The notes beneath the pieces are model-generated. The model saw only the letters and a list, made by a program, of their open reading frames with translations. It was not told the DNA's origin and did not search any database. Below are positions 7,616 to 56,010 of a DNA stretch of 64,000 nucleotides, in pieces. Each line of letters opens with the position of its first letter. The stretch's first letter is position 1. This DNA is from Syntrophorhabdaceae bacterium. Lineage in GTDB: Bacteria; Desulfobacterota; Syntrophorhabdia; Syntrophorhabdales; Syntrophorhabdaceae. The translations under genes and the position numbers were made by a program. Location: assembly GCA_963665295.1 (NCBI GenBank), contig OY762209.1, positions 5,280,001 through 5,344,000 on the forward strand, in the 5' to 3' direction.

Positions 7616-8098
7616 GTCTTGTAGCGGGTTTTCCAACCATTTCTAACCGAACAGCATCAAATACAGCAAAGCAACAGGTAAATTGCACGGAAAATGATAT
7701 AGACGTTGTGTTTGATTGGCTAGGAATTGCATTTGAGTGGTGGAAGAATGCGACGTCCGTCTTCACGGGGATCGCGCAAAATCCATACTGTCTTGCAGGC
7801 CGATTTAGTACCTGTAGATTGTCAAATACATTTGACCCTTCTTTGTCGGATGAAGTGACCCCTACAGGCTCCGGACTTCTTTTGCAGTAATCCGAAATAA
7901 CAAGGATCACGGGCTCTCAAGGAAATCAGGAAAAGGATGGACCCTTCGTATCCACCTGCAAAAGGGGGTCAGAAGTATTTGACAATCTACACCCTCCGAA
8001 ACCGGCATGGCAAATTTTGTCTGACCAGGTTGCACAAAGGAACCGGAATCACTGCTGAGGTGACTGCCGACAACAACTGTTCTCTGTCGTGGCCCTGC

Positions 8099-44390: not shown

Positions 44391-44925
44391 TGTCCACACC
44401 GCAATCAGGCTGTCACGTGTCGGTTGACCTCGCCTTCTTCCCATGGGGTGTGCTCTTTCCGCACTGAGGGCGTGTTTCACGACGGCTCCGGCGTATCAGC
44501 GTCACACCGGGGATAATATGCCATCTCAGAAACAGTACGGCAGCAGTGGCAACCAACGCCGGGAAGGCTATCCTCGATAATAGGGCAAATAACTCCTTAA
44601 TCAGATTTTCCAATATGGTCCCGGCCTCTCTTCGGGCTCCGTCCCCCGGGCTTTAAGGCGGGATGACGCTCCAACGCTCCATCCGGGCCCTGGTGGGGGC
44701 GGCCCTCCGTTACATCGAATAAATGTATATTCCATCGACGGCTGCCGGGGATGTGATCACTGTCACGACCCTGTCCGTCCGAATACGCGACCGCCGGAAC
44801 GGACGCACCGGTACACGGACACGGGAGATTGCCGTTGAAAGTGTTTCATGAAGACAAAAGCCCGGCAAAGTAAATTTCTATTTTTTAAAAGACTTGGTAG
44901 TGGGTCAGTTTGATTTTTTTCCATA

Positions 44926-44954
44926 TTGATATGCTTAAGCGGTCATGCTAGACT
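44926..44954 (+). promoter_or_regulatory. sigma70 promoter, apparently leaderless, for the small basic gene of element A
   Basis: TTGATA-17-TAGACT with extended TG, 6 nt before ATG 44961, no RBS. Confidence 0.6.
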
Positions 44955-44960
44955 TATGAC

Positions 44961-45233
44961 ATGGCAAAGAAAAGACCGACAGACATAAACTTACTCGCTC
45001 GACAGATCGTAGAGGAAGCCATAGGAGAACCGCTTATAGATAAGGTCCAAGAACCTACCGAAGAAACCCCGACACAGGAACCAGTCAAAGAGAAGAACGC
45101 CGCCGCTGTTGCCCTTGGTAGATTGGGAGGATTGAAGGGGGGCAAGGCACGGGCAGAACGACTTACCCCCGAACAGAGGAAGGAGATCGCTAAGAAAGCG
45201 GCTGCGTCTCGCTGGACAAAGAAAGATCACTGA
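44961..45233 (+). CDS. Small basic protein with GGKARA..LTPEQR.EIA.KAA..RW motif (putative DNA-binding regulator of the element)
   Basis: 90 aa; homologous to 48247-48492 and to the N-terminus of 45190-46239. Confidence 0.8.
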   Translation: MAKKRPTDINLLARQIVEEAIGEPLIDKVQEPTEETPTQEPVKEKNAAAVALGRLGGLKGGKARAERLTPEQRKEIAKKAAASRWTKKDH

Positions 45234-46239
45234 ATAGTGGTAAGTCTTTGAGTTTAGTATATCTCGGATATGCTCTATCTAACATTACTTTGAATTGTTC
45301 CCATCCCTTGTCTTCTGCTATACGCATCAAGCCTATAACTGCGTATAAATGTTGCGCTAATGCTGGATGGCCTACGTCCTCGGTCAAAAATTGATGGTGT
45401 TTAACTTTCCTGTAGCCCTTATCGTTTTTAGGATTCTTTCTTTCCAGTTCTTCCAGAAGACCAGGAGTAAGGCGACTATAGACTATATCATTCGTGTATT
45501 TGGCTACTATTTGAGGGGGATTAACCTTAAGTCCTTTCCACTCCCATCCCCGTAGTCTAAATATCTCTTTATAGAATTCAAGCGGGAACTTTCTTGCCCA
45601 CGCTGCGAATTCTTTTCTTAAGAACCGATCAAGTATTGCCTGTAATGCTTGACGATCTCTTACGTCTTGGTATCCGGTAGCTTCATCAACGAGGGCAATA
45701 ATACCTACAGTGGCAAGACCCCTAATAAGGATTCTACATTTTTGAGCGATGTGTTTCTGCGTGGCGGTAAGAACACCCGCTTCATCAGCATCAATAAATA
45801 CTCCACATACTTGAGGAAGCAATTCAGCCTTGTAGCCGATAAACTGCGTGTTTTTGTGTTGAAAAATAATGGGAGATGAATTCTCCTTTAAGTCATCAGG
45901 AATATAGGCCTTTATATTATTTGCAGTTAGAAAAACAGGCAGTTTGAATTCATCGTCGTAGGCCCTACCACCCTTAGCTTTCCCCTTTCTGCCTATGGCC
46001 TTAACAAAGGTCGCTCGTGTTAATACTCTCGTGCCATCTTCAAGAACTGCCGCCTTGAATTCTGCGTTGCCTACTTTTAATTCATTGAAATATTCTGTGG
46101 TAAGTACCTTTCCTTCTATGCCAGATTTAGCCCATCGCTTTTGTACTGCCTTCCTCGCTATCTCACTTCTTTGCTCAGGAGTCAATTTGGCCGCTCTTGC
46201 AAAACCACCTTTGGCTTTTCCAGAAGCTTCATCGTCCAT
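45190..46239 (-). CDS. P63C-domain protein (phage-type) with N-terminal GG.ARA.KLTPEQR.EIA motif
   Basis: VGIIALVDEATGYQ, W..KFP.EFYKEIFRL.GW, TNDIVY.RL, HQFLT.DVG; AAGGAG RBS. Confidence 0.85.
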   Translation of the reverse strand: MDDEASGKAKGGFARAAKLTPEQRSEIARKAVQKRWAKSGIEGKVLTTEYFNELKVGNAEFKAAVLEDGTRVLTRATFVKAIGRKGKAKGGRAYDDEFKLPVFLTANNIKAYIPDDLKENSSPIIFQHKNTQFIGYKAELLPQVCGVFIDADEAGVLTATQKHIAQKCRILIRGLATVGIIALVDEATGYQDVRDRQALQAILDRFLRKEFAAWARKFPLEFYKEIFRLRGWEWKGLKVNPPQIVAKYTNDIVYSRLTPGLLEELERKNPKNDKGYRKVKHHQFLTEDVGHPALAQHLYAVIGLMRIAEDKGWEQFKVMLDRAYPRYTKLKDLPLFSDLSLSSETQPLS

Positions 46240-46334
46240 ACTTGCATTCTCCTTAGTTTTAATACTTGCATTTTATCTTAAAACAACTTTATAATGCAAG
46301 TATTATTTGATGGCAAAAAAGAAACATACTTGCA
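46238..46334. repeat. Four copies of ATACTTGCA (one inverted) in the divergent P63C/transposase region
   Basis: 46238-46246, 46262-46270, 46295-46303 (TGCAAGTAT), 46326-46334. Confidence 0.8.
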
Positions 46335-46342
46335 AAAAAGAC

Positions 46343-46372
46343 TTGACATGCTTAACCGCTCAAGCATATAAT
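46343..46372 (+). promoter_or_regulatory. Consensus sigma70 promoter of transposase A with palindromic spacer
   Basis: TTGACA-18-TATAAT, ATG 6 nt downstream; spacer TGCTT-N8-AAGCA. Confidence 0.75.
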
Positions 46373-46378
46373 GTAAAT

Positions 46379-47209
46379 ATGAACAGGTTAGACAGAAAAA
46401 GACAGGCACAGGTGATAGCGGCATTAGTTGAGGGTAATTCTATCCGTGCTACTGTCAGAATGACCGGCGTAGCCAAGAATACCATTGTTAAGCTCCTTGC
46501 CGATATAGGTAGGGCGTGTGCGGAATACCAGGACAAGACCCTGCGCAACTTACCCTGTACCAAAATCCAATGTGACGAGATATGGTCTTTCTGCTATTCC
46601 AAGGAAAAGAACATACCTGAAGACAAGAAAGGTCGCTTTGGATATGGCGATGTATGGACCTGGACGGCATTAGACCCCGATACTAAGCCCATGGTATCAT
46701 GGTTGGTTGCAGATCGCAGCGCAGGGGCCGCCATGGAGTTTATGACCGATCTTTCAGAGAGACTAAGCAACAAGATTCAGCTTACCACGGATGGTTACAG
46801 GATATATCTCAACGCCGTTGAAAGCGCCTTCAGAGGCAACATTGATTATGCCATGCTCGTCAAGATATATGGCAACGACTCGGAAGGTGAAAAGAGATAT
46901 AGTCCCGCCGCTTGTAGAGGCTCGGAAAAGATTGTTGTATGTGGTAAGCCTGATATGCAGCATGTTTCAACAAGCCATGCAGAGAGGCAAAACCTTACGA
47001 TGCGTATGAGCATGAGAAGGTTCACGAGACTCACGAACGGCTTTTCAAAGAAGGTCGAGAATCACAGCCACGCAATATCACTCTATTTCATGTACTATAA
47101 CTTCTGCCGGATTCACCAGACGTTAAGGGTGACACCCGCAATGGCAGCAGGGATAACAGATCATGTATGGGATATTAAAGATATAATAAGTCTTATGTCT
47201 CAAAAATAA
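46379..47209 (+). CDS. IS1-family DDE transposase
   Basis: N-terminal HTH; CDEIW, TTDG, ERQNLTMRM..RRFTR...FSK, YNF. Confidence 0.88.
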   Translation: MNRLDRKRQAQVIAALVEGNSIRATVRMTGVAKNTIVKLLADIGRACAEYQDKTLRNLPCTKIQCDEIWSFCYSKEKNIPEDKKGRFGYGDVWTWTALDPDTKPMVSWLVADRSAGAAMEFMTDLSERLSNKIQLTTDGYRIYLNAVESAFRGNIDYAMLVKIYGNDSEGEKRYSPAACRGSEKIVVCGKPDMQHVSTSHAERQNLTMRMSMRRFTRLTNGFSKKVENHSHAISLYFMYYNFCRIHQTLRVTPAMAAGITDHVWDIKDIISLMSQK

Positions 47210-47291
47210 GGAGCATTTCTTGAGACTATTGTTGTTAACGTACCCACTTGACAGATTAGAACAAGTGTGCTACTGTTCGATATAGAACTAA

Positions 47292-48065
47292 ATGAGGCAA
47301 ATAAGAGCAAAAAAGGATGGGCTAGATATCCAAGGCAAGAATGGTGGATTCCATGGCGTTAACCGTGCCGACCACGAGTTGAGACAGTTGATACAGAGTT
47401 GGGAGAACAGGTTGACCCTCGAAAGCCTGTCCTTCATCGAACAATACATTGAAGGCAGGCTTTCCATAATTTGTGATCTTTACCGCGCCACTGAAAGATA
47501 TCGCGTTGAGCTTTTTGCCTTGGGGAACGGCAAGAGTAGTGCCATAAAAGGCGTTCCCGTTTTCATCGATCATGTCTACCCCAGTCAGACCTGCAATGGT
47601 CAGTACGGGGACAAGCAACTTGTGTTTGTCCATGATATCGATTTGGTGGAGGGAATACAAGGCGTCGTTCCCTCCTGGATAAGGCTTAATAGTATCGACA
47701 ATGAGGCCAATAATAGCGGCGGGCAAAGGCTGTTCTTTTCTACCATCCAGGGTTGCTACAAGCTCGTCCCTAGTCTTCCTAAACGGGAACTTCGTATATT
47801 GGGTGGGAGTTTGTCCCGCAATAGTTACCACTTCCCAAAACATCAGATCAAGAGAGGATCGGAGGTTATGGACAATATCTCCCATTACCAATGGAATGGT
47901 TATGGGAAGAGATTTAGTCATCTCAAGCTGTATAACATGCTGTCTAGTGTTAGAATCTTCCTCGACGCTAAGACGGCAAAAATCTTCCTTGGAAAAGAAG
48001 GCAAGGACGGTTACCAACTCGGAGATATGCTGGTTGGCCCTTTCGATCTTGAGGCGCGCTCCTGA
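47292..48065 (+). CDS. Hypothetical protein antisense to 47322-48080 (may instead be an antisense transcript)
   Basis: 257 open codons in low-GC DNA; upstream TTGACA-17-TACTGT promoter at 47248-47276. Confidence 0.35.
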   Translation: MRQIRAKKDGLDIQGKNGGFHGVNRADHELRQLIQSWENRLTLESLSFIEQYIEGRLSIICDLYRATERYRVELFALGNGKSSAIKGVPVFIDHVYPSQTCNGQYGDKQLVFVHDIDLVEGIQGVVPSWIRLNSIDNEANNSGGQRLFFSTIQGCYKLVPSLPKRELRILGGSLSRNSYHFPKHQIKRGSEVMDNISHYQWNGYGKRFSHLKLYNMLSSVRIFLDAKTAKIFLGKEGKDGYQLGDMLVGPFDLEARS

Positions 48066-48080
48066 AAATAGAGGACTCAT
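47322..48080 (-). CDS. Hypothetical cargo protein, possibly HEPN-like
   Basis: 252 aa; KIERA..HI, GD.VHNLRSSLD, FP, L..LH..D..DKH motifs; TTTACA-17-TAATAT 8 nt before the ATG. Confidence 0.7.
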   Translation of the reverse strand: MSPLFSGARLKIERANQHISELVTVLAFFSKEDFCRLSVEEDSNTRQHVIQLEMTKSLPITIPLVMGDIVHNLRSSLDLMFWEVVTIAGQTPTQYTKFPFRKTRDELVATLDGRKEQPLPAAIIGLIVDTIKPYPGGNDALYSLHQIDIMDKHKLLVPVLTIAGLTGVDMIDENGNAFYGTTLAVPQGKKLNAISFSGAVKITNYGKPAFNVLFDEGQAFEGQPVLPTLYQLSQLVVGTVNAMESTILALDI

Positions 48081-48246
48081 ATAAGAGGATATTATCGTTT
48101 ATTTTGGCTTTTGTAAAACAGTTTCGCAAAAGCTTATCTTCTTTTTCAAACTGACCCACTACCAAAGACTTGGTAGTGTCTCAGTTTCACGCAGCCCTCT
48201 CTTGACAAAAGGGTGAAAAAAGATAGCAGCCATGATATACTTAGAT

Positions 48247-48492
48247 ATGCCCAAGGGACCGCAAGGACAGAAACGACCCGCCGATGTAATAGGCAATGCT
48301 ATAACGGTTGCCAGAATCGCCACAGGGGAAATTGAGGAAACTACCGATGGCAAGGATTATGCGCGCGAAGGTGGGCAGAAGGGGGGAAAAGCGAGAGCAG
48401 AGAAACTTACTCCCGAGCAGAGATCCGAGATAGCGAAAAGGGCAGCGGAGATAAGATGGGCAGCGAAGGCGGGGGTTAAGGGTGAACGATAA
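48247..48492 (+). CDS. Small basic protein with GGKARAEKLTPEQRSEIAKRAA..RW motif
   Basis: MPKGPQGQKRPADV...; extended -10 TGaTATACT 5 nt before the ATG; paralogue of 44961-45233. Confidence 0.8.
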   Translation: MPKGPQGQKRPADVIGNAITVARIATGEIEETTDGKDYAREGGQKGGKARAEKLTPEQRSEIAKRAAEIRWAAKAGVKGER

Positions 48493-48499
48493 GTTTTTG

Positions 48500-49414
48500 C
48501 TATTGCAGACTTTGGTGTTTAACGAAAGCGACTCCGTTATGATTTTCGATCATCTTGTATGCATCAGTGTTCATTAGACTATGCATGAAGCAATGATGTA
48601 CTGTTAAAATTAGGTCTTGTAGATCGTTGTCGTCTTCTATCCTATCAACACATAATCCAATATCCTCACATTCTTCCATGTGCAGATGTCTTCCGTGAGT
48701 TTTGTTTAGTTGTGGGTCTGATAAACTTTTCGCGATAGCTTTAGCCTTTTTCTTGGCATCCGGTTCCCCGGCAAACATTATTTCTTCAAGTTGATCCTGG
48801 ACAAATTTATTTGACCATTCTATTGCCTTTTCGCATTGGCCTAAAAAGGTAGGCCTGTATTGGCCTATAATGGATACCCATAATGGAATCTTGTCCGGGT
48901 CTTTCTTGCATTCTTTGTAAGCCCTTTTGAACTCTTCAAGAACTCCATAGGCGGGGACCCCTCGCAGATGTGGATCAATAGGCCCTAGATTTGAATGTTC
49001 TGTCATTAGTATTCTCTTACACGAACAGGCAATCATGGTCCCCGCCGACATAGCTATTTGGGGGACAATTGCCCTGACATCGTTCTTGAACATCTTATGT
49101 AAATAATTAACGATCGATTGGGTAGCGGCAATACTACCGCCTTCGGTATGGAGAATAAGGTCAAGCCCCTTGGCTCTGTCCAATTGATGAACCGCCATCA
49201 TAAATCCATTCTTGTCTTCATCGTTGATGTCGGATTGGGCAACATTTGGCTTGGATAAAAAAGCTGAATAGTACGCGATTATATTTCGATTGGTCTTTTC
49301 GTGAAGCTTCTTTAAGTAGTCTCGACGGACAATATCCACAGCGCCTTGTGATTGGCTGTGAAGTTGAGCCTGTGTTATTTGAATTTCTTTAAGAATGTCG
49401 TTCCAATTTGGCAT
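48500..49414 (-). CDS. SDH/S49-like ClpP-fold serine protease
   Basis: LDLILHT.GG, AMSAGTMIA (catalytic Ser), LGPIDP, HGRH. Confidence 0.85.
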   Translation of the reverse strand: MPNWNDILKEIQITQAQLHSQSQGAVDIVRRDYLKKLHEKTNRNIIAYYSAFLSKPNVAQSDINDEDKNGFMMAVHQLDRAKGLDLILHTEGGSIAATQSIVNYLHKMFKNDVRAIVPQIAMSAGTMIACSCKRILMTEHSNLGPIDPHLRGVPAYGVLEEFKRAYKECKKDPDKIPLWVSIIGQYRPTFLGQCEKAIEWSNKFVQDQLEEIMFAGEPDAKKKAKAIAKSLSDPQLNKTHGRHLHMEECEDIGLCVDRIEDDNDLQDLILTVHHCFMHSLMNTDAYKMIENHNGVAFVKHQSLQ

Positions 49415-49417
49415 TCG

Positions 49418-49597
49418 CTATATCGGCTTTTCGTATGCTCCATATGTTGTTACACTATTTACGATCTTTCGAGCGTGAGGCTGCTCCAACGAATAATCAT
49501 CTGTACCGTGTGTTGTAAAGGGTTTCACTACAATCTCTAGGTACTGAGATTCTATGGATTTCTTTAGCTGCGAAGGTTTTTCTTTCTTTTCTGCCAT
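49418..49597 (-). CDS. Small hypothetical protein (59 aa) coupled to the protease
   Basis: GAGGAGGTG RBS before ATG 49597; stop 3 nt before the protease start. Confidence 0.6.
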   Translation of the reverse strand: MAEKKEKPSQLKKSIESQYLEIVVKPFTTHGTDDYSLEQPHARKIVNSVTTYGAYEKPI

Positions 49598-49689
49598 CAA
49601 TACACCTCCTCTTATCGTGAGGCACTCTTCAAAGCAAGTATAGCACGTTTTTGCTGAAAGAGAAAGAAAGTTTAAACTGCAAATAATGC

Positions 49690-49718
49690 TTGACACCTAA
49701 GCATAAAGTTCATATACT
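49690..49718 (+). promoter_or_regulatory. sigma70 promoter of transposase B with overlapping palindrome
   Basis: TTGACA-17-TATACT, ATG 6 nt downstream; ATGCTT-N7-AAGCAT over the -35. Confidence 0.75.
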
Positions 49719-49724
49719 TACAAT

Positions 49725-50549
49725 ATGAACAAGCTGCCAATATCGAAAAGAGTTCAAATCCTTCAGATGCTTTGCGAGGGATCGTCTATGAGGTCCATAT
49801 CAAGGGTGGCCGACGTATCTATCAACACGGTAACAAAATTGCTAGTGGATGCAGGAAAAGTATGTGCTTCGTATCAAGACAAGACGCTCCGTGGCTTGGC
49901 CTGCAAAAGAGTACAGTGCGATGAAATATGGTCGTTTTGTTACTCAAAAGAGAAAAACATACCTGAAGACAAGAAAGGTCGCTTCGGTTACGGTGATGTA
50001 TGGACCTGGACGGCGTTAGACCCCGATACAAAGCTCATGGTATCATGGTTGGTTGCAGATCGTAGCGCAGGGGCCGCCATGGAGTTTATGACCGATCTTT
50101 CAGAGAGACTAAGCAATAAGATTCAGCTTACCACGGATGGTTACAGGATATATCTCAACGCCGTTGAAAGCGCCTTCAGAGGCAACATTGATTATGCCAT
50201 GCTCGTCAAGCTGTATGGCAATGACTCCGAGGGCGAAAAGAGATATAGCCCCGCTAAATGCCTTGGAGCGGAGAAGTCGATTATATGTGGGTCACCCGAC
50301 AAAAACCATATATCCACAAGCTATGTGGAGAGACAGAACCTTACCATGAGAATGAATATGAGGCGGTTTACAAGACTGACTAATGGTTTCTCAAAGAAAG
50401 TCGAGAATCATTGTCATGCCCTCGCCCTCTATTTCATGGCATATAATTTTGTAAGGATTCACAAAACACTGAGAGTCACGCCCGCAATGGCGGCAGGGGT
50501 GACAGATCATGTATGGGAAATAAAGGATATCATTAGTTTAATTGAGTAA
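49725..50549 (+). CDS. IS1-family DDE transposase
   Basis: Same motifs as 46379-47209 (CDEIW, TTDG, ERQNLTMR, FSKK). Confidence 0.88.
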   Translation: MNKLPISKRVQILQMLCEGSSMRSISRVADVSINTVTKLLVDAGKVCASYQDKTLRGLACKRVQCDEIWSFCYSKEKNIPEDKKGRFGYGDVWTWTALDPDTKLMVSWLVADRSAGAAMEFMTDLSERLSNKIQLTTDGYRIYLNAVESAFRGNIDYAMLVKLYGNDSEGEKRYSPAKCLGAEKSIICGSPDKNHISTSYVERQNLTMRMNMRRFTRLTNGFSKKVENHCHALALYFMAYNFVRIHKTLRVTPAMAAGVTDHVWEIKDIISLIE

Positions 50550-50648
50550 ATTTTCACATTTACCTTGACTTGCAACCCCTCCCATGCAAATATTAGTTAA
50601 TGAGTGGCTCCGATGGACGATAATACGTCAAAAGGAGGGTAGGCCATT

Positions 50649-51092
50649 ATGCCAAATTATACTGCTTCCGATATAGCCAATTATTTTCTTTTCAAAGCTC
50701 AAGAGGAAGACCAAGAATTATTATCGAATTTAAAACTTCAGAAACTCGTTTATTATGCTCAAGGACTTCATCTTGCGATTTACGGTGGGCCTCTTTTTGA
50801 TGATAGAATAGAAGCGTGGCAATATGGTCCTGTAATACCCAGCTTATATCATGAATACAAACATTATGGGGCTAGCGGAATCCCTGCCCTAGACAGTTAT
50901 GATCCTCCCATTATCGATGCTGAGACGATTGATTTCTTAGATGAAGTCTATGAGTTTATGGGGCAGTATTCGGCTATTCGTCTGATGGAAATGGCCCATT
51001 CTGATGATTGTTGGATAGACGCTGGAATAGGTAATATAATTACTTGTGATGCCATGAAAAATGACCTAAAAAAGTACCTCAAGGATGAGTAG
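50649..51092 (+). CDS. Panacea (DUF4065/SocA) antitoxin
   Basis: LSNLKLQKLVYYAQG, IEAWQYGPV, L.EMAH...W; AGGAGG RBS. Confidence 0.9.
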   Translation: MPNYTASDIANYFLFKAQEEDQELLSNLKLQKLVYYAQGLHLAIYGGPLFDDRIEAWQYGPVIPSLYHEYKHYGASGIPALDSYDPPIIDAETIDFLDEVYEFMGQYSAIRLMEMAHSDDCWIDAGIGNIITCDAMKNDLKKYLKDE

Positions 51093-51245
51093 ACATCTAA
51101 AAAAATCGCAATCGAAAAGTACTAACCGTTTTCAAGATACAAAGATACCTCCTTCAAAAAACTACGATTTGGAAAAGCCAGTTTTTTCACTGAGACATAT
51201 CGGAACGTGTCAATGAAAATGAGACACTTCCATCAGATATTTAGT

Positions 51246-53166
51246 CCGAAGTTCCCCCTGTGAAATCCCCCCAATATCACTCTATCCCGTTGAAATGACG
51301 GGAATAGGGTGATAATCATATCTTCTACTTGTTGCCATGTAATAGTGCATTATGTACTTGACATGTAGGTAAGCTATTTGCTATATATGTTCCATGTACA
51401 TCGAAAGCATCCCCAACCGCAACTCCCGGCCCGCCATCCTCTTGAGGGAGGCATGGAGGGAAGGCAAAAAGATAAAGAAGAAGACAGTCGCAAACCTCAC
51501 TGATTGGCCGGAAGAGAAGATCGAGCTCTTGAGGCGTGTATTGAAAGGGGAGTCTCTCGTCTCTCCGAAGGAAGCCTTTAAGGTTGAGCAGTCTCTCCCC
51601 CACGGCCATGTGGAGGCCATACTCGGGACAATAAAGAAGCTTGGCCTTGATACGGTCATTGCCTCGAAGCCTGGAAGGGAGAGAGACCTCGTAATCGCCA
51701 TGATCGTGGAACGCCTCATCCACCCCTCATCGAAATTAGCAACTACGAGGCTCTGGCATACTACTTCGGTGGCGGAGGAACTCTCGGTTGCAGATGCCGA
51801 TGAGGACGAACTCTATGATGCCCTGGACTGGCTTTTGGCAAGACAGGAGCGGATCGAGAAGAAGCTGGCGAATAAGCACCTTACCGAGGGCTCGCTCGTG
51901 CTCTACGATGTGACGAGCAGTTACTACGAGGGCCACACCTGTCCCCTTGCGCAGTTCGGCCATGACCGGGATGAAAAGGGAAAGAGGATCATCGTCTATG
52001 GAGTACTCACCGATCACGAAGGCCGACCTGTTGCAGTTACCGTCTATCCGGGGAATACGGGCGATCCCTCTACCATTCCCGACCAGACGGCAAAGCTCAA
52101 AGAAAGATTCGGTCTCGATCACCTCGTCCTCGTGGGCGACAGGGGCATGCTTACGGAGACACAGATTACAAAGATAAAGGAGATGCCCGGCATAGGGTGG
52201 ATATCGGCCCTCAGGTCTTCCGCCATACGCGAGCTTGTGGGACAGGGGAGCATCCAGATGTCCCTCTTCGATACCCAGGACTTTGCGGAAATCACCTCTC
52301 CCGAGTATCCGGGGGAAAGGCTCATCGCTTGCTTCAACCCCCTTCTTGCCGAAGAGAGAAAGAGGAAAAGAAACGCGCTCCTCGATGTGACGGAAAAGAA
52401 GTTGTCCTCCATTGTACGGGCGGTCGGGAGAAGGACAAGGACGCCTCTTTCCGCAGCGGAGATAGGGAAGAAAGTCGGCGCGGTAGTCAACGATCACAAG
52501 ATGGCGAAGCACTTTATCCTTACCATCGGAGACGGGTCCTTCTCATTCGCCCGGAACGAGGAGTCAATCACCGAAGAAGAAGCCCTCGACGGGATCTATG
52601 TGATCCGTACGAGTGAACCAGCCCTTCCTCCCGCCGATGTGGTACGGAACTACAAGAACCTTGCCCGGGTAGAGCGGGCCTTCAGGACCTTGAAGGGCAT
52701 CGATCTTCTCGTCCGTCCCATTCACCACCGTACCGAGGATCACGTGCGAGCCCACATCTTTCTCTGCACCCTCGCCTATTACGTAGAGTGGCATATGAGG
52801 GAGGCCCTTACGCCGCTGCTCTTCGACGATGAGGAGCTTCCCCTCTCACGAACGACGAGAGACCCGGTAAAGCCCGCGGAGTCATCTTCTTCCGCAAAGA
52901 AAAAGAAGACCACCAAGCTCACCCCTGACGGCCTTCCCGTCCAGAGCTTCCGTACCCTCCTTGCCGCACTGGGGACCCGATGCAAAAACCGGTGCAGGAT
53001 GGTTTTGGACTCCATGGCCCCGGCCTTCACCCTTCTTACTGATCCGACACCTCTCCAGGCCCGCGCCCTTGCCCTCCTCGGACTGTAGCCAGTAACGGGA
53101 AATCAATTTCTGCCATAATCATTGGAATATCAAGGTGATGGGTTAATATTGGGCGGGGAACTTCGG
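51246..53166 (+). mobile_element. IS1634-family insertion sequence
   Basis: 12-bp TIRs CCGAAGTTCCCC / GGGGAACTTCGG; 6-bp TSD TTTAGT (51240-51245, 53167-53172). Confidence 0.9.
51394..53088 (+). CDS. IS1634-family transposase
   Basis: LYDVTSSYYEG, VGDRGM, Y..L..VERAFR.LK, RPIHH, HIFLC.LAY. Confidence 0.92.
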   Translation: MYIESIPNRNSRPAILLREAWREGKKIKKKTVANLTDWPEEKIELLRRVLKGESLVSPKEAFKVEQSLPHGHVEAILGTIKKLGLDTVIASKPGRERDLVIAMIVERLIHPSSKLATTRLWHTTSVAEELSVADADEDELYDALDWLLARQERIEKKLANKHLTEGSLVLYDVTSSYYEGHTCPLAQFGHDRDEKGKRIIVYGVLTDHEGRPVAVTVYPGNTGDPSTIPDQTAKLKERFGLDHLVLVGDRGMLTETQITKIKEMPGIGWISALRSSAIRELVGQGSIQMSLFDTQDFAEITSPEYPGERLIACFNPLLAEERKRKRNALLDVTEKKLSSIVRAVGRRTRTPLSAAEIGKKVGAVVNDHKMAKHFILTIGDGSFSFARNEESITEEEALDGIYVIRTSEPALPPADVVRNYKNLARVERAFRTLKGIDLLVRPIHHRTEDHVRAHIFLCTLAYYVEWHMREALTPLLFDDEELPLSRTTRDPVKPAESSSSAKKKKTTKLTPDGLPVQSFRTLLAALGTRCKNRCRMVLDSMAPAFTLLTDPTPLQARALALLGL

Positions 53167-53167
53167 T

Positions 53168-54166
53168 TTAGTGTACCCCGCCATCGCTCGTTGATAATGG
53201 CTTATTGATCCAGACGGCGTCAGGCAGTGACGCCGGTTTCGGCATCCTCCCCTTGAACCGTTCCGGATGTTTTTCATACGCAGCCCGCAGTACGTCCGTA
53301 CGACCTTCAATGATCCTCAACGCTCTTCCATAATGGACGTCCTCGGGGGTGAGAAGACCTATCCCCGAATGGTAATGCTCGGTATTGTACCAGGGGAAGA
53401 ATGTCTGGCAAAAGGCCCGGGCATCCTCAATGGAGCCGAACCTTTGAGGGAACTCGGGCCGGTACTTCATGGTCTTGAACTGAGATTCGGAATAGGGGTT
53501 GTCATTACTGACCGAAGGCCTCGAATGGCTCTTGGTGACCCCGAGATCGGCCATGAGCAGGGCGACGGGTTTCGACGTCATACTCGACCCCCTGTCCGCA
53601 TGGATCAGGAGCTTACCGGGCTCTATCATTTGCTTCTCGCAGGTCTCCGCGATCAGTTTGCGAGCAAGGGCGGCAAGTTCCCTGTGGGCCACCATCCACC
53701 CCACCACATAGCGGCTGTAGATGTCGAGGATCACATAGAGGTAGTAGTAGGTCCATTTTACGGAACCCTTGAGCTTCGTGATATCCCAGCTCCACGCCTC
53801 GTTGGGCGCCTTCGCGAGGATCTCCGGTTTTGCGTACCGGGGACGGGAGACCTGCCTCCTCCTTTCTTTCAGCTCACCTTCTTCTTCAAGGATCCGGTAC
53901 ATGGTGCGCACTGAACAGAGATAGCTCTTCTCGTCCAGGAGGGCCGCGTAGATTTCCCGGGGTGCTTTATCGATGAAGCGGTCCGAATGAAGGATATCAA
54001 GTACATCGTTCCGTTCCCCGAAGGAGAGGGCCAAGGGAGAGAGACGGTTCAAAGGTTCCTTCTCTTTCGGATGCTGCCACCGGTAAAAGCCCGCACGGGA
54101 TACGTCGAGGGCGTTGCAGGCAGGGCGGATACCCACTTCATGGGCAAGCGATTGCGTGATGTTCAT
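53168..54166 (-). CDS. IS3-family transposase OrfB (rve/DDE)
   Basis: WSWDIT, LDIYSR, HADRGS, DNPYSESQFKT, WYN..H.HSG. Confidence 0.92.
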   Translation of the reverse strand: MNITQSLAHEVGIRPACNALDVSRAGFYRWQHPKEKEPLNRLSPLALSFGERNDVLDILHSDRFIDKAPREIYAALLDEKSYLCSVRTMYRILEEEGELKERRRQVSRPRYAKPEILAKAPNEAWSWDITKLKGSVKWTYYYLYVILDIYSRYVVGWMVAHRELAALARKLIAETCEKQMIEPGKLLIHADRGSSMTSKPVALLMADLGVTKSHSRPSVSNDNPYSESQFKTMKYRPEFPQRFGSIEDARAFCQTFFPWYNTEHYHSGIGLLTPEDVHYGRALRIIEGRTDVLRAAYEKHPERFKGRMPKPASLPDAVWINKPLSTSDGGVH

Positions 54167-54561
54167 GACTTCTCCTCGCTCGACCCCTTGAGCAGCTCGG
54201 CCACTTTTTTTTGGACCTCGATAATGAGCTCCGCCTGTTTCAGTTTATGGGTGAGCCTCGTGTTCTCCTTTTCCAGTTCGATGGTGCGACGGATAAGGGG
54301 ATCAGGCTTTTGTGTGACGGGTCCTCTCTTTTTCGGGATGAGGCCCTGGTGAACCTGACGCCGCCATGAGGTGAGGCTCGATGAATAAAGTCCCTCTCTG
54401 CGCAGAAGCGCCCCTATCTCACCCTTCCCGGTACAGTTCTCCACCTCCTTGAGGATACGGAGCTTGTACGCCGCGGTGAATTTCCGGCGAACTGCCTTTT
54501 CCGGTACTTCCGGATCGGGGACTACCCTTGGTGATGCCATGACTGATTTCTTTTCTTCCAC
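54163..54561 (-). CDS. IS3-family OrfA (HTH)
   Basis: RRKFTAAYKLRIL...LRREGLYSS.L..WR; A8 slippery run (T 54205-54212) permits a -1 frameshift into orfB. Confidence 0.85.
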   Translation of the reverse strand: MEEKKSVMASPRVVPDPEVPEKAVRRKFTAAYKLRILKEVENCTGKGEIGALLRREGLYSSSLTSWRRQVHQGLIPKKRGPVTQKPDPLIRRTIELEKENTRLTHKLKQAELIIEVQKKVAELLKGSSEEKS

Positions 54562-54944
54562 GATCGTTCTTTCCTTCCCGCCCCCAAGAGTCTAAACTAT
54601 TGGGTGGGAAGTGTCTCACTTATATTGGCACGGAGGGGATAGTGTATGAAGGGCCATATTGCGTATCCCAATGTGATGAGGAAAAGAAGGCAACTATCTT
54701 GCAAAGATTATTAAGGCTGAGCCAATCAACGTGGCAAGAGATAAAGAGACTACCAAGAGAAGATGGATTTGAAATTATTCCTCACCATAGATTCAGGGCC
54801 CCCCTTCCATCTATTTTAACTCCAGAGACCGTAATACTTGTTGCTCGCTATGATGGTGATGGCGGCAGGCTTGCAGGCTATAGAGACAAAGATGTATACC
54901 ATATAGTCCTTGTAGGCAGAGATTTGTATCCACATTAATTCTTT

Positions 54945-54962
54945 TCAAACTGACCCACCACC
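54945..54962. repeat. Extra internal right-end TIR of element-A type
   Basis: TCAAACTGACCCACCACC, 17/18 identical to the element A TIR. Confidence 0.8.
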
Positions 54963-55007
54963 CTACAAAAAAATTTATCTTTTTCAAACTGAGACACTAC
55001 CAAAGAC

Positions 55008-55038
55008 TTGACAAATTTGCGTGTGTAATATATATAAT
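55008..55038 (+). promoter_or_regulatory. Putative sigma70 promoter of the ATPase operon
   Basis: TTGACA, then TATATA at 17 nt or TATAAT at 19 nt; the -35 overlaps the TSD. Confidence 0.55.
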
Positions 55039-55260
55039 GATATTAGGTTTAGTAGTTGTTCTATCTCCGGTAGCCGAGAGCAGGACGTACTGCTCGGAGT
55101 CTTTTACAGTGGGCGGTGGCGCGAGACGGCAGTAAGCGACAGGAAAAGGTGATTGTCGCGTAACGGTTCAGCATGCGTCACCAGGCGGTTTAACCACGAA
55201 TATCAGTGATGTCGCCGACCCCGGAGGCCGGCGTGCACGCTGAAGGACCAGGGGGTAGAT

Positions 55261-56010
55261 ATGTGCAAGCCTGTTGATTTAAACAAATGTATTTCCTTTA
55301 TTAAGTCCGGATTTCTCCAGAAGATCGACAACGCTTCTCTCTCAACCATGGTAAGGCCGACGGTGACAATTTCACGGATGACGGGGTCCGGCGGACATAC
55401 GGTCGCCGCGAACCTCGCGGATTACCTGCGGATGACCCTGCCGGATCGTGGCGAATGGGCCGTTTTTGACCGGAATCTGGTGGAGAAGATCCTGGAAGAG
55501 CACCATCTCCATAAACGGGTTGGCGATTTCATGAAAGAAGGTCACAAGACCATGTTTACCGACGTGGTGGAGGAGTTGGTAGGTCTCCATCCCGGCGGCT
55601 GGACGCTCTTGCAGAAGACAAATGCCACAATATTGCACCTCGCACAGATGGGAAATGTCATCCTTGTGGGTCGGGGTGCATGCGTAGTGGCGGCCAAAGC
55701 AAGAAACGCCCTCCACGTGCGTCTGGTAGGGTCCCTTGAAAAACGGATCAAATGGGTGGAACGGACCTGTAATGTCGATGCTAAAGCGGCCCTTCAGTTC
55801 ATCAAGAAAGGTGACGAAGGGCGCAGGCGCTACCTGAAAGATAACTTTGATAGAGACGTCGATGACCCGCTCCTCTATCACATGGTTATCAATACGGATA
55901 TTGTGAGCCACGAAGAAGCCGCCCGGATGATCGGCAATGAATTGATCAGGCGGTTCAAACTGGACAGACAGGTGAAGGCGACGGGAAGCAGGCAGAGCGC
56001 GATCCAATAA
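55261..56010 (+). CDS. Cytidylate kinase-like family protein
   Basis: TISR.TGSGG, ILVGRGA, HVRLV, D..R..Y, Y..VINT. Confidence 0.85.
   Translation: MCKPVDLNKCISFIKSGFLQKIDNASLSTMVRPTVTISRMTGSGGHTVAANLADYLRMTLPDRGEWAVFDRNLVEKILEEHHLHKRVGDFMKEGHKTMFTDVVEELVGLHPGGWTLLQKTNATILHLAQMGNVILVGRGACVVAAKARNALHVRLVGSLEKRIKWVERTCNVDAKAALQFIKKGDEGRRRYLKDNFDRDVDDPLLYHMVINTDIVSHEEAARMIGNELIRRFKLDRQVKATGSRQSAIQ

Follow-up and report, generated by a model that had tools for sequence, protein, structure and literature searches.

The DNA analysed here, hereafter the window, is a stretch of 64,000 nucleotides (nt) of contig OY762209.1 (assembly GCA_963665295.1) from a Syntrophorhabdaceae bacterium. It carries two transposons related to the insertion sequence (IS) IS1, called element A and element B, which lie head to tail at one insertion site and enclose passenger genes that resemble toxin-antitoxin and defence modules.

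Two Elements at a Single Insertion Site

Three copies of the octamer AAAGACTT mark the site as target-site duplications: the first at 44888..44895, the second at 48164..48171, where it makes up the whole 8-bp spacer of the A/B junction, and the third at 55002..55009. Between the first two lies element A (44896..48163, + strand, 3268 bp), whose ends GGTAGTGGGTCAGTTT at 44896 (+) and 48163 (-) belong to the GG variant of the terminal repeat, GGTAGTGGGTCAGTTTGA, and form a perfect inverted repeat of 18 nt. Element B follows (48172..55001, + strand, 6830 bp, or about 3390 bp minus a nested insertion), with the TC variant GGTAGTGTCTCAGTTT at 48172 (+) and 55001 (-), perfect over 16 nt, the outer right copy occupying 54986..55001 on the - strand. 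Within the window, the terminal-repeat pattern has 6 matches at two mismatches or fewer, against 0.22 expected, and AAAGACTT occurs 10 times against 1.8 expected, a count that 0 of 100 shuffles reached. Five more copies of the octamer lie outside the array, at window positions 1486, 3504, 28636, 40589 and 42442, without a terminal-repeat match nearby, and contribute to this excess over chance.

A preliminary description of this DNA had proposed a tandem array at one site, a perfect inverted repeat proper to each element, a size of about 3.3 kb once the nested insertion is removed, and a fixed layout that includes P63C, a ClpP-fold protease, Panacea and IS1-type transposases. All of this was borne out; Pfam recognised the proteins, the protease as SDH-type and ClpP-like. 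The three identical octamers imply that A and B inserted successively into the same 8 bp, and we are highly confident that these are two real, sequentially inserted elements of one family.

The same description had itself raised the possibility that the junction at 48164-48171 is an assembly merge of two alternative alleles, and a tandem duplication that later diverged would leave a similar picture. Shared repeats do break the short-read contigs, at 46747-46835 and 50064-50210, as either origin would allow. However, one 3259-bp Logan contig in each of the runs X1 and X3, which come from two studies, covers 46835-50093 and thus bridges the junction with zero differences and at the depth of the flanks (X1 or X3 may be the source run of the assembly itself), and the genome is a single 5.5-Mb contig. 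As for duplication, the two transposases are 79% identical as proteins and 75% as genes, and an old duplication in place is excluded, because A and B have different cargo and different terminal repeats, with the repeats of each and the duplications still perfect. We consider an artefact or duplication scarcely credible.

Mapping of short-read contigs revealed neither an empty-site joint nor one from an allele with a single element. Two joints of low support (44917->49914 and 46370->49914), with sides of only 21-22 nt, were set aside. No empty allele could be read in relatives, whose alignment to the right flank is confined to its coding part (68-75% identity).

Genes of Element A

Element A begins with a small basic gene of 90 amino acids (aa) at 44961..45233 (+), followed in cargo slot 1 by a gene for a P63C-domain protein of 349 aa (45190..46239, -; PF10546, 116.9 bits; phrog_2384, E 1e-117). 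The IS1-type transposase is encoded by a single open reading frame (ORF) at 46379..47209 (+), taken from a conserved ATGAAC start where the longest ORF would begin at 46307, and its promoter at 46343..46372 (+) matches the sigma-70-type consensus at 12 of 12 positions, inside the operator-like motif aCTTGACATGCTTAAcCGcTCAAGC.

The small basic gene adjoins the left end and is conserved in relatives, and it is probably the regulator of the element. The small basic proteins of A and B have no Pfam match even at E<=5. In A, the C-terminal motif GGLKGGKARAEKL..RKEIA..AA..RW matches the N-terminus of phrog_2384; the last 35 residues of both small proteins match this motif with E about 1e-7. As phrog_2384 is the family of the P63C cargo of A itself, one short basic motif heads both proteins.

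Cargo slot 2 holds a gene for a 252-aa protein on the - strand (47322..48080), which belongs to no Pfam family and has 257 homologues of about 250 aa. It had been presented as half of a HEPN-like/antisense pair; the minus-strand ORF stands as a gene, whereas the plus-strand ORF overlapping it (47292-48065) is without homologues and unsupported. The AlphaFold2 model of the protein (pLDDT, the predicted local distance difference test, 92) has a helical core resembling HEPN domains and a beta-sandwich insert. Foldseek against the PDB returned no match at E<=0.001, and a protein atlas search returned unnamed clusters only. A wide VIA structural search placed HEPN-domain proteins on top with Z scores of 9.9-8.1 (4nqf 9.9, 5yep 9.1, 1ufb 8.8, 2hsb 8.6, 3o10 8.5, LsoA 8.4), a ranking within the range below about 13 that is common among helical bundles. 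The catalytic motif of HEPN domains is Rx4-6H. The invariant residues of the family are K11, R14, H18, D78, D151, K152 and H153, and R14 and H18 are separated by 3 residues against the canonical 4-6. The modelled fold is suggestive of a HEPN-like protein.

Genes and Nested Insertions of Element B

Element B follows the same order, with a small basic gene of 86 aa (48232..48492, +) and, in cargo slot 1, an SDH-type ClpP-like serine protease gene (48500..49414, -; PF01972, 86.6 bits; phrog_11747). Upstream of the protease gene lies an ORF of 58 aa (49418..49594, -) with AGGAGG before its start; its weak match to Abi_C (E 0.023, below the cut-off) was not used. The IS1-type transposase of 274 aa (49725..50549, +) is preceded by a promoter at 49690-49718 that agrees with the consensus at 11 of 12 positions.

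In cargo slot 2, a Panacea-domain (SocA-like) antitoxin gene (50649..51092, +) scores 79.3 bits with PF13274 against a cut-off of 25.7, and 78.9 bits with the NCBIfam SocA model, under the cut-off of 190. The gene for its partner overlaps the antitoxin stop by 8 nt and is split by a nested IS into an N-terminal part (51085..51200, +) and a C-terminal part (54639..54938, +), the latter 71% identical to an intact 143-aa homologue in L027. Such an intact 143-aa homologue follows the Panacea gene in two relatives, E27 and E28. The family of this partner protein has 9 homologues and a match to phrog_8366, and is without a Pfam or PADLOC name. From this gene order and these families, the Panacea gene and its downstream neighbour form a predicted toxin-antitoxin pair.

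The preliminary description had seen one nested IS in B. The insertion is there, and it consists of two elements: an IS3-family element on the - strand (~51201..54638, approximate boundaries; orfA 54163-54561, orfB 53168-54166), which splits the predicted toxin gene, and within it an IS1634-family element on the + strand (~51240..53166; transposase 51394-53088). Pfam, NCBIfam (188.9 bits for the IS3 and 324.9 bits for the IS1634 element) and a contig joint concur on this. The joint, 51239->53167, has about ten times the flank depth and indicates that an IS3 copy free of its IS1634 guest exists elsewhere. In the short-read contigs, each of the two elements likewise has roughly ten times the flank depth, so that both must be multi-copy in the organism or its community.

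A Single-ORF Branch of IS1

The IS1 family, in the sense of ISfinder, is defined by a DDE transposase related to InsAB', terminal repeats that start with GGT and a duplication of 8-9 bp, and classical IS1 has two ORFs joined by a -1 frameshift. The ends of A and B read GGTAGTG, are perfect over 16-18 nt and flank 8-bp duplications. The Pfam model DDE_Tnp_IS1 recognises both transposases (31.4 and 29.2 bits, cut-off 24.1), a match that covers only about 40 C-terminal residues, and the NCBIfam IS1 model is the best match for both at 54.6 and 65.8 bits, below its cut-off of 100. Both transposases are one uninterrupted ORF of 274-276 aa rather than the frameshifted pair, which places them in a single-ORF branch apart from classical IS1. 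This branch is found in many phyla and is very large: a homologue search with these transposases gave at least 8000 protein clusters, many of them named "IS1 family transposase" by their sources. IS1 includes an ISMhu11 subgroup; this name gave no match in the literature searched.

A transposase homologue is present in 10 of 60 related genomes. Relatives measure 2-4 kb and have 8-bp duplications at unrelated sites. Seven complete elements delimited in these genomes have perfect ends and duplications that are exact in six (GAATATTC, GATTTTGT, CCAATCCG, AAAAATGA, AAATTTTC and GCCCGGCG, all different) and carry one mismatch in the seventh; eight further single elements from a sample of the phylum have 8-bp duplications, 7 exact and 1 with one mismatch. 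The genome of the window holds a third element of 3790 bp (L011 7183-10972; G000:C1, ~1899182-1902971), with a transposase 48% identical, ends GGTGGTGTCCTAATTT and a duplication CAATGGAG/CAATAGAG with one mismatch. It carries a Gp49/HTH (helix-turn-helix) pair, two ORFs without assignment and a KilA-N protein. Elsewhere in the genome, one solitary sequence resembles an end (L012 6621-6636); it falls within GC-rich coding DNA and was attributed to chance.

In family members that have the small basic gene, this gene adjoins the left end, and an operator-like motif, CTTG[AC]CATGCTTAA[GC]CG.TCA, lies in the promoters of both the small gene and the transposase; the element's own operator-like sequence reads aCTTGACATGCTTAA... 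A and B are autonomous transposons of the single-ORF IS1 branch, of the kind called "transporter IS". Each would consist of its terminal repeats, a promoter of its own with the operator-like motif, a probable regulator, one DDE transposase and passenger genes.

Variety and Modularity of the Cargo

Seven complete relatives, a partial one and this genome's third element differ in their cargo. Among the contents of the relatives are RmrT/RmrA (Rosmer) pairs, PDC-S13 and PDC-S05 candidates, HicAB, a ClpP protease and DUF3800. In other genomes, 44 elements with confirmed duplications were collected, of which 31 measure at least 1.2 kb; a scan of the 131 ORFs of at least 85 aa in these 31 found five more SDH proteases, GmrSD, two nSTAND/AAA NTPases, a dCTP deaminase, Fic and PIN proteins and an HTH+M78 protein. 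E27 has the Panacea-toxin module of B again, beside a protease as in B, and E28 has it beside a Rosmer pair, the three Panacea proteins being 68-71% identical. Cargo thus varies among homologues, and tandem junctions recur (see below), which is the opposite of the invariant or absent cargo and the want of tandems that would have spoken against a cargo-exchanging family.

For the elements of the window, PADLOC named no known defence system in the cargo of A and B, whereas all four of their modules have phage homologues in PHROGs. Judged by family membership, the cargo would be of toxin-antitoxin and defence type. The proposed compact transposon with two exchangeable slots is upheld for compactness, varied cargo and recombining modules; the two slots are not universal, for in E25, L104, L112 and L095 the transposase gene stands at one end.

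Same-Site Stacking Across Genomes

One-genome-per-species data were scanned for a right end followed within 0-30 bases by a left end, and of the 112 loci obtained, 8 were removed as an unrelated palindrome and 104 were kept. The spacer is 8 bp long in 83 of these junctions, 9 bp in 9, and 12-30 bp in only 4 in total, and 39 of the 83 unite different repeat variants. Same-site stacking is a trait of the family, in agreement with the reuse of one site first suggested for the window. The 83 spacers represent 81 distinct octamers with a weak C......G preference, and this diversity excludes a sequence-specific hotspot. Tandem arrays as a habit of the family need qualification: they recur in about 100 species and are a minority state. 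The 401 genomes sampled from the phylum have 72 ends and a single back-to-back pair, and 401 from Alphaproteobacteria have roughly 135 ends and again one pair. Many partners are remnants free of cargo. Many are indeed short, being MITE-like (resembling miniature inverted-repeat transposable elements) with 120-950 bp, abutted pairs of ends of 27-36 bp, or orphan ends.

The flank of the distal end could be compared with the spacer on 60 sides; the two were equal (at most one mismatch) on 37, reverse complements on 7 and otherwise different on 16. The last group would suit a pair formed elsewhere that moved as a composite by means of the left end of A and the right end of B. Such a composite would keep an older, unrelated octamer between its members, whereas the inner spacer in the window equals both outer duplications; composite movement is thereby refuted for this locus, and we rate it as very improbable.

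The reverse-complement cases (7 of 60 sides) show the order octamer, first element, inverted octamer, second element, octamer, at L036, L070, L074, L076, L094 and L035 (junction at ~8013-8022 in each), and there the spacer between the facing terminal repeats seems to have been inverted. Mini-elements made of two abutted terminal repeats (27-36 bp) were seen at L053 (8022-8051), L070 (8022-8048) and L102 (7983-8013), and also left of the junction at L041 and L107. They are flanked by the same octamer as the adjacent full element and are probably remnants left after loss of the whole interior. The unrelated palindrome, CTGAACCACTACCGG...CCGGTAGTGGTTCAG with a 10-11-nt centre (L057, L058, L069, L077, L085, L091, L109 and L113), comes from Lachnospiraceae, Ruminococcus, Planctomycetota and other taxa, lacks a neighbouring IS1-type transposase and matched the pattern by chance.

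Choice of Target

Immediately beyond element B lies a promoter-like site of the host (55008..55036, +), TTGACA - 17 nt - TATATA, whose exact TTGACA at 55008-55013 begins at position 7 from the tip of B. The generality of this arrangement was evaluated on 389 family ends from all loci fetched, of which 153 were retained after ends facing another end and duplicate flanks were dropped. In 21 of the 153 outward flanks (10 of them exact), TTGACA with at most one mismatch begins exactly at position 16 from the tip, against a background of 0.72 per position and a maximum of 4. The box recurs, as an exact TTGACA, 15 bp past the right tip of this genome's third element (position 16), and eleven junction loci show it at an outer end. 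A minor register at positions 6-7 comprises 6 ends against about 1.4 expected, including the window (position 7), L040 and L103; the two registers are about one helical turn apart.

From a mechanistic point of view, the family would measure its target against a -35-like TTGACA. In the major register, 15 bp would separate the tip from the hexamer downstream; in the minor register, one helical turn closer, the distance would be about 6 bp, as in the window. The hexamer and the adjoining duplication copy would survive each insertion and lead every later arrival to the same octamer, building up a head-to-tail stack beside the promoter. Such reuse of the anchor would account for the sharp 8-bp spacing, the mixed pairs and the independent insertions at the same offset.

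The alternative is that the transposase prefers a resident terminal repeat together with its 8-bp flank, whatever the host context, as described for IS30 (junctions beside a resident repeat) and IS911 in PMC9333248. The structure of the array fits this targeting of resident ends and the reuse of an anchored site equally well. The gaps between abutting ends peak at 8 bp, the partners are often remnants or orphan ends, and some insertions fall within the resident tip, the duplications of L108, L065 and L044 including terminal-repeat bases. In the window, the box lies off the major +16 position, which makes this locus the weakest case for the anchor. Where both members of an 8-bp pair have a transposase (the window, L094 and L096), they lie head to tail, as resident-end targeting would have it, but three of three is not significant. 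Targeting of ends also leaves unexplained the +16 peak at ends that have no neighbour, as well as independent insertions that share one offset from a conserved host motif between genomes (five Solirubrobacterales loci, L064/L110 and L040/L044/L079/L103), and stacks are as rare as given above. We judge it the main rival and the less likely explanation of the pattern; both it and the anchor may act together.

The combined explanation that we prefer, in which two elements arrived in sequence, guided by the anchor, and then recombined (see below), has in our judgement about an even chance of being right in its entirety, and several points weigh against it. Empty or single-element alleles, which would reveal the order of arrival of A and B, were not found, and the function of every cargo gene, like transposition itself, is deduced from sequence. 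The window lies outside the major register, and the minor one consists of few and partly weak matches. The +16 box is present at only 21 of 153 ends, most insertions being without a recognisable anchor, and the -10 sequences that follow the +16 boxes often match poorly (1-4 mismatches). The ends, moreover, came from loci fetched by differing criteria, and kin among them are non-independent. Finally, the anchor model predicts that B, on the promoter side, is the younger element, yet B holds two nested IS, which is neutral at best.

Host motifs at other loci

In Solirubrobacterales, the motif TT[TG]ACATAACATAnATTATCGAG abuts the duplication in the left flank at L045, L060, L062, L104 and L111, and on the other side at L082, L095, L099 and L112. 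The octamers differ between these genomes and are identical within each, which indicates independent insertions at one relative position. The TTGACA-like box in this order reads towards the element, as TGTCAA at position 26 in 13 flanks.

In Alphaproteobacteria, the stacks L040, L044, L064, L079, L103 and L110 lie 4-20 nt from GTTC-N7-GTTC boxes, which we take to be of the LexA type, upstream of recA (L044) and of the DNA polymerase III alpha gene (L110, L079). In these 6 junction loci, 10 of 38 such boxes have an end within 60 nt, against 0.8 expected. Targeting of the LexA box itself was rejected, as only one of about 135 ends lies beside such a box in 401 alphaproteobacterial genomes; a better account of these cases is that the -35 box of an SOS promoter serves as the anchor.

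Behind the promoter-like site of the window, a terminator-like hairpin at 55078-55095 is followed by a T run, and the next gene (55261-56010), weakly cytidylate-kinase-like, begins about 170 nt past the hairpin. Either a leader or a small RNA may be encoded at 55008-55105; no Rfam match that would name it was obtained at E<=0.1 between 43000 and 57000.

Recombination Between Family Members

A tract of about 270 bp within the transposase gene of A (46620..46890, +) is 92-99% identical to B at about 49960-50230, and 95-99% in its core. Along the gene, A and B agree at 45-63% in nt 1-210, at 92-99% in nt 241-510 and at 62-78% further on. Short-read contigs end at the shared tract, which has twice the depth. 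We read the tract as the product of gene conversion or recombination.

Element B itself combines two types. Its left part resembles the TC-type element E25, whereas its right part, with the Panacea gene, the toxin gene and a GG-type terminal repeat, is the right end of a GG-type element. This inner right end, GGTGGTGGGTCAGTTT (54947..54962, -), stands directly after the toxin gene and is followed by CTACAAAA and then by the last 31 bp of a TC-type end. E27 and E28, which are GG-type elements, likewise have their end directly behind the toxin stop. An inner end in this position marks B as a chimera, and together with the near-identical tract it indicates that neighbouring elements recombine. 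In the simplest history, a GG-type element would have inserted near the right end of a TC-type element, with a subsequent crossover between their transposase genes, which would provide a route for acquiring the cargo of slot 2. More generally, the mosaic sequence shows that stacked or nested members recombine through their similar transposase genes and so transfer cargo.

Relation to Known Systems and Significance

Passenger-carrying IS, targeting of resident ends (IS30) and site-anchored insertion in other IS families were already known. Transporter IS are described in PMC9330008 as IS-like elements with passenger genes, and A and B agree with this in holding the P63C protein, the HEPN-like protein, the SDH protease and the Panacea pair inside their ends. 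They resemble IS1 in transposases that best match IS1 models, in repeats starting with GGT and in the 8-bp duplication, and they differ from it in the single ORF, the extra small basic gene by the left end, the cargo in up to two slots and the proposed anchoring to a -35 box that leads to stacking; for these last features the IS1 literature searched gave no precedent.

PMC9333248 describes how IS30 integrates beside a resident repeat with formation of IRL-IRR junctions (joined left and right inverted repeats), and "targeted" transposition of IS911. As there, a new element lies head to tail by a resident end, with a spacer of the duplication length. In that account, however, the junctions are reactive intermediates between copies of one IS, whereas those found here persist in the genomes of about 100 species, 39 of 83 unite mixed variants, and a host -35-like hexamer at a fixed distance accounts for much of the pattern. 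The ISAjo2/IS1202 group is reported to insert at a set distance from a short host site (dif/pdif); the elements considered here belong to another IS family, with TTGACA as anchor instead of dif and two registers. PMC7157771 reports toxin-antitoxin modules within Tn3-family transposons, from which the present elements differ in transposase and size, in having no resolvase and in cargo that varies among close relatives.

The array had also been called integron-like. It does resemble an integron in placing adaptive modules in series at one promoter-adjacent locus, but there is no tyrosine recombinase, attI/attC or promoterless cassette, and each unit is a transposon with its own transposase. As no integrase family was found with Pfam among the 15 ORFs scanned, and no cassette site, the term holds as an analogy only. 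In the literature searched, most subscription journals aside, nothing was found on an IS1 branch with routine defence or toxin-antitoxin cargo, on insertion of this branch at a set distance from a -35 hexamer, or on mixed, recombining head-to-tail stacks of it; PMC6563490 contains nothing on IS1 cargo.

A further reading, which we put forward tentatively and regard as doubtful, is that an element-encoded promoter ruler creates reusable landing pads, as a transposase-only functional counterpart of the integron platform that would seed defence islands. The small basic protein or the N-terminal HTH of the transposase would bind the aCTTGACA...-type operators in the two promoters of the element; the same protein would recognise a host -35-like TTGACA and dock the transposition complex one or two helical turns upstream. 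Elements with different cargo would then stack there and swap defence or toxin-antitoxin modules by recombination.

Passenger-carrying IS have been treated as curiosities, whereas toxin-antitoxin and anti-phage modules appear here as the usual load of a very large branch. The target rule is of more interest than this particular pair of elements. A nucleotide-precise -35 ruler, if true, would be an unusual choice of target for a DDE transposon, and it would explain the promoter-side location, the head-to-tail arrangement and the shuffling of cargo. Such a rule gives annotators a means to find these elements and their remnants.

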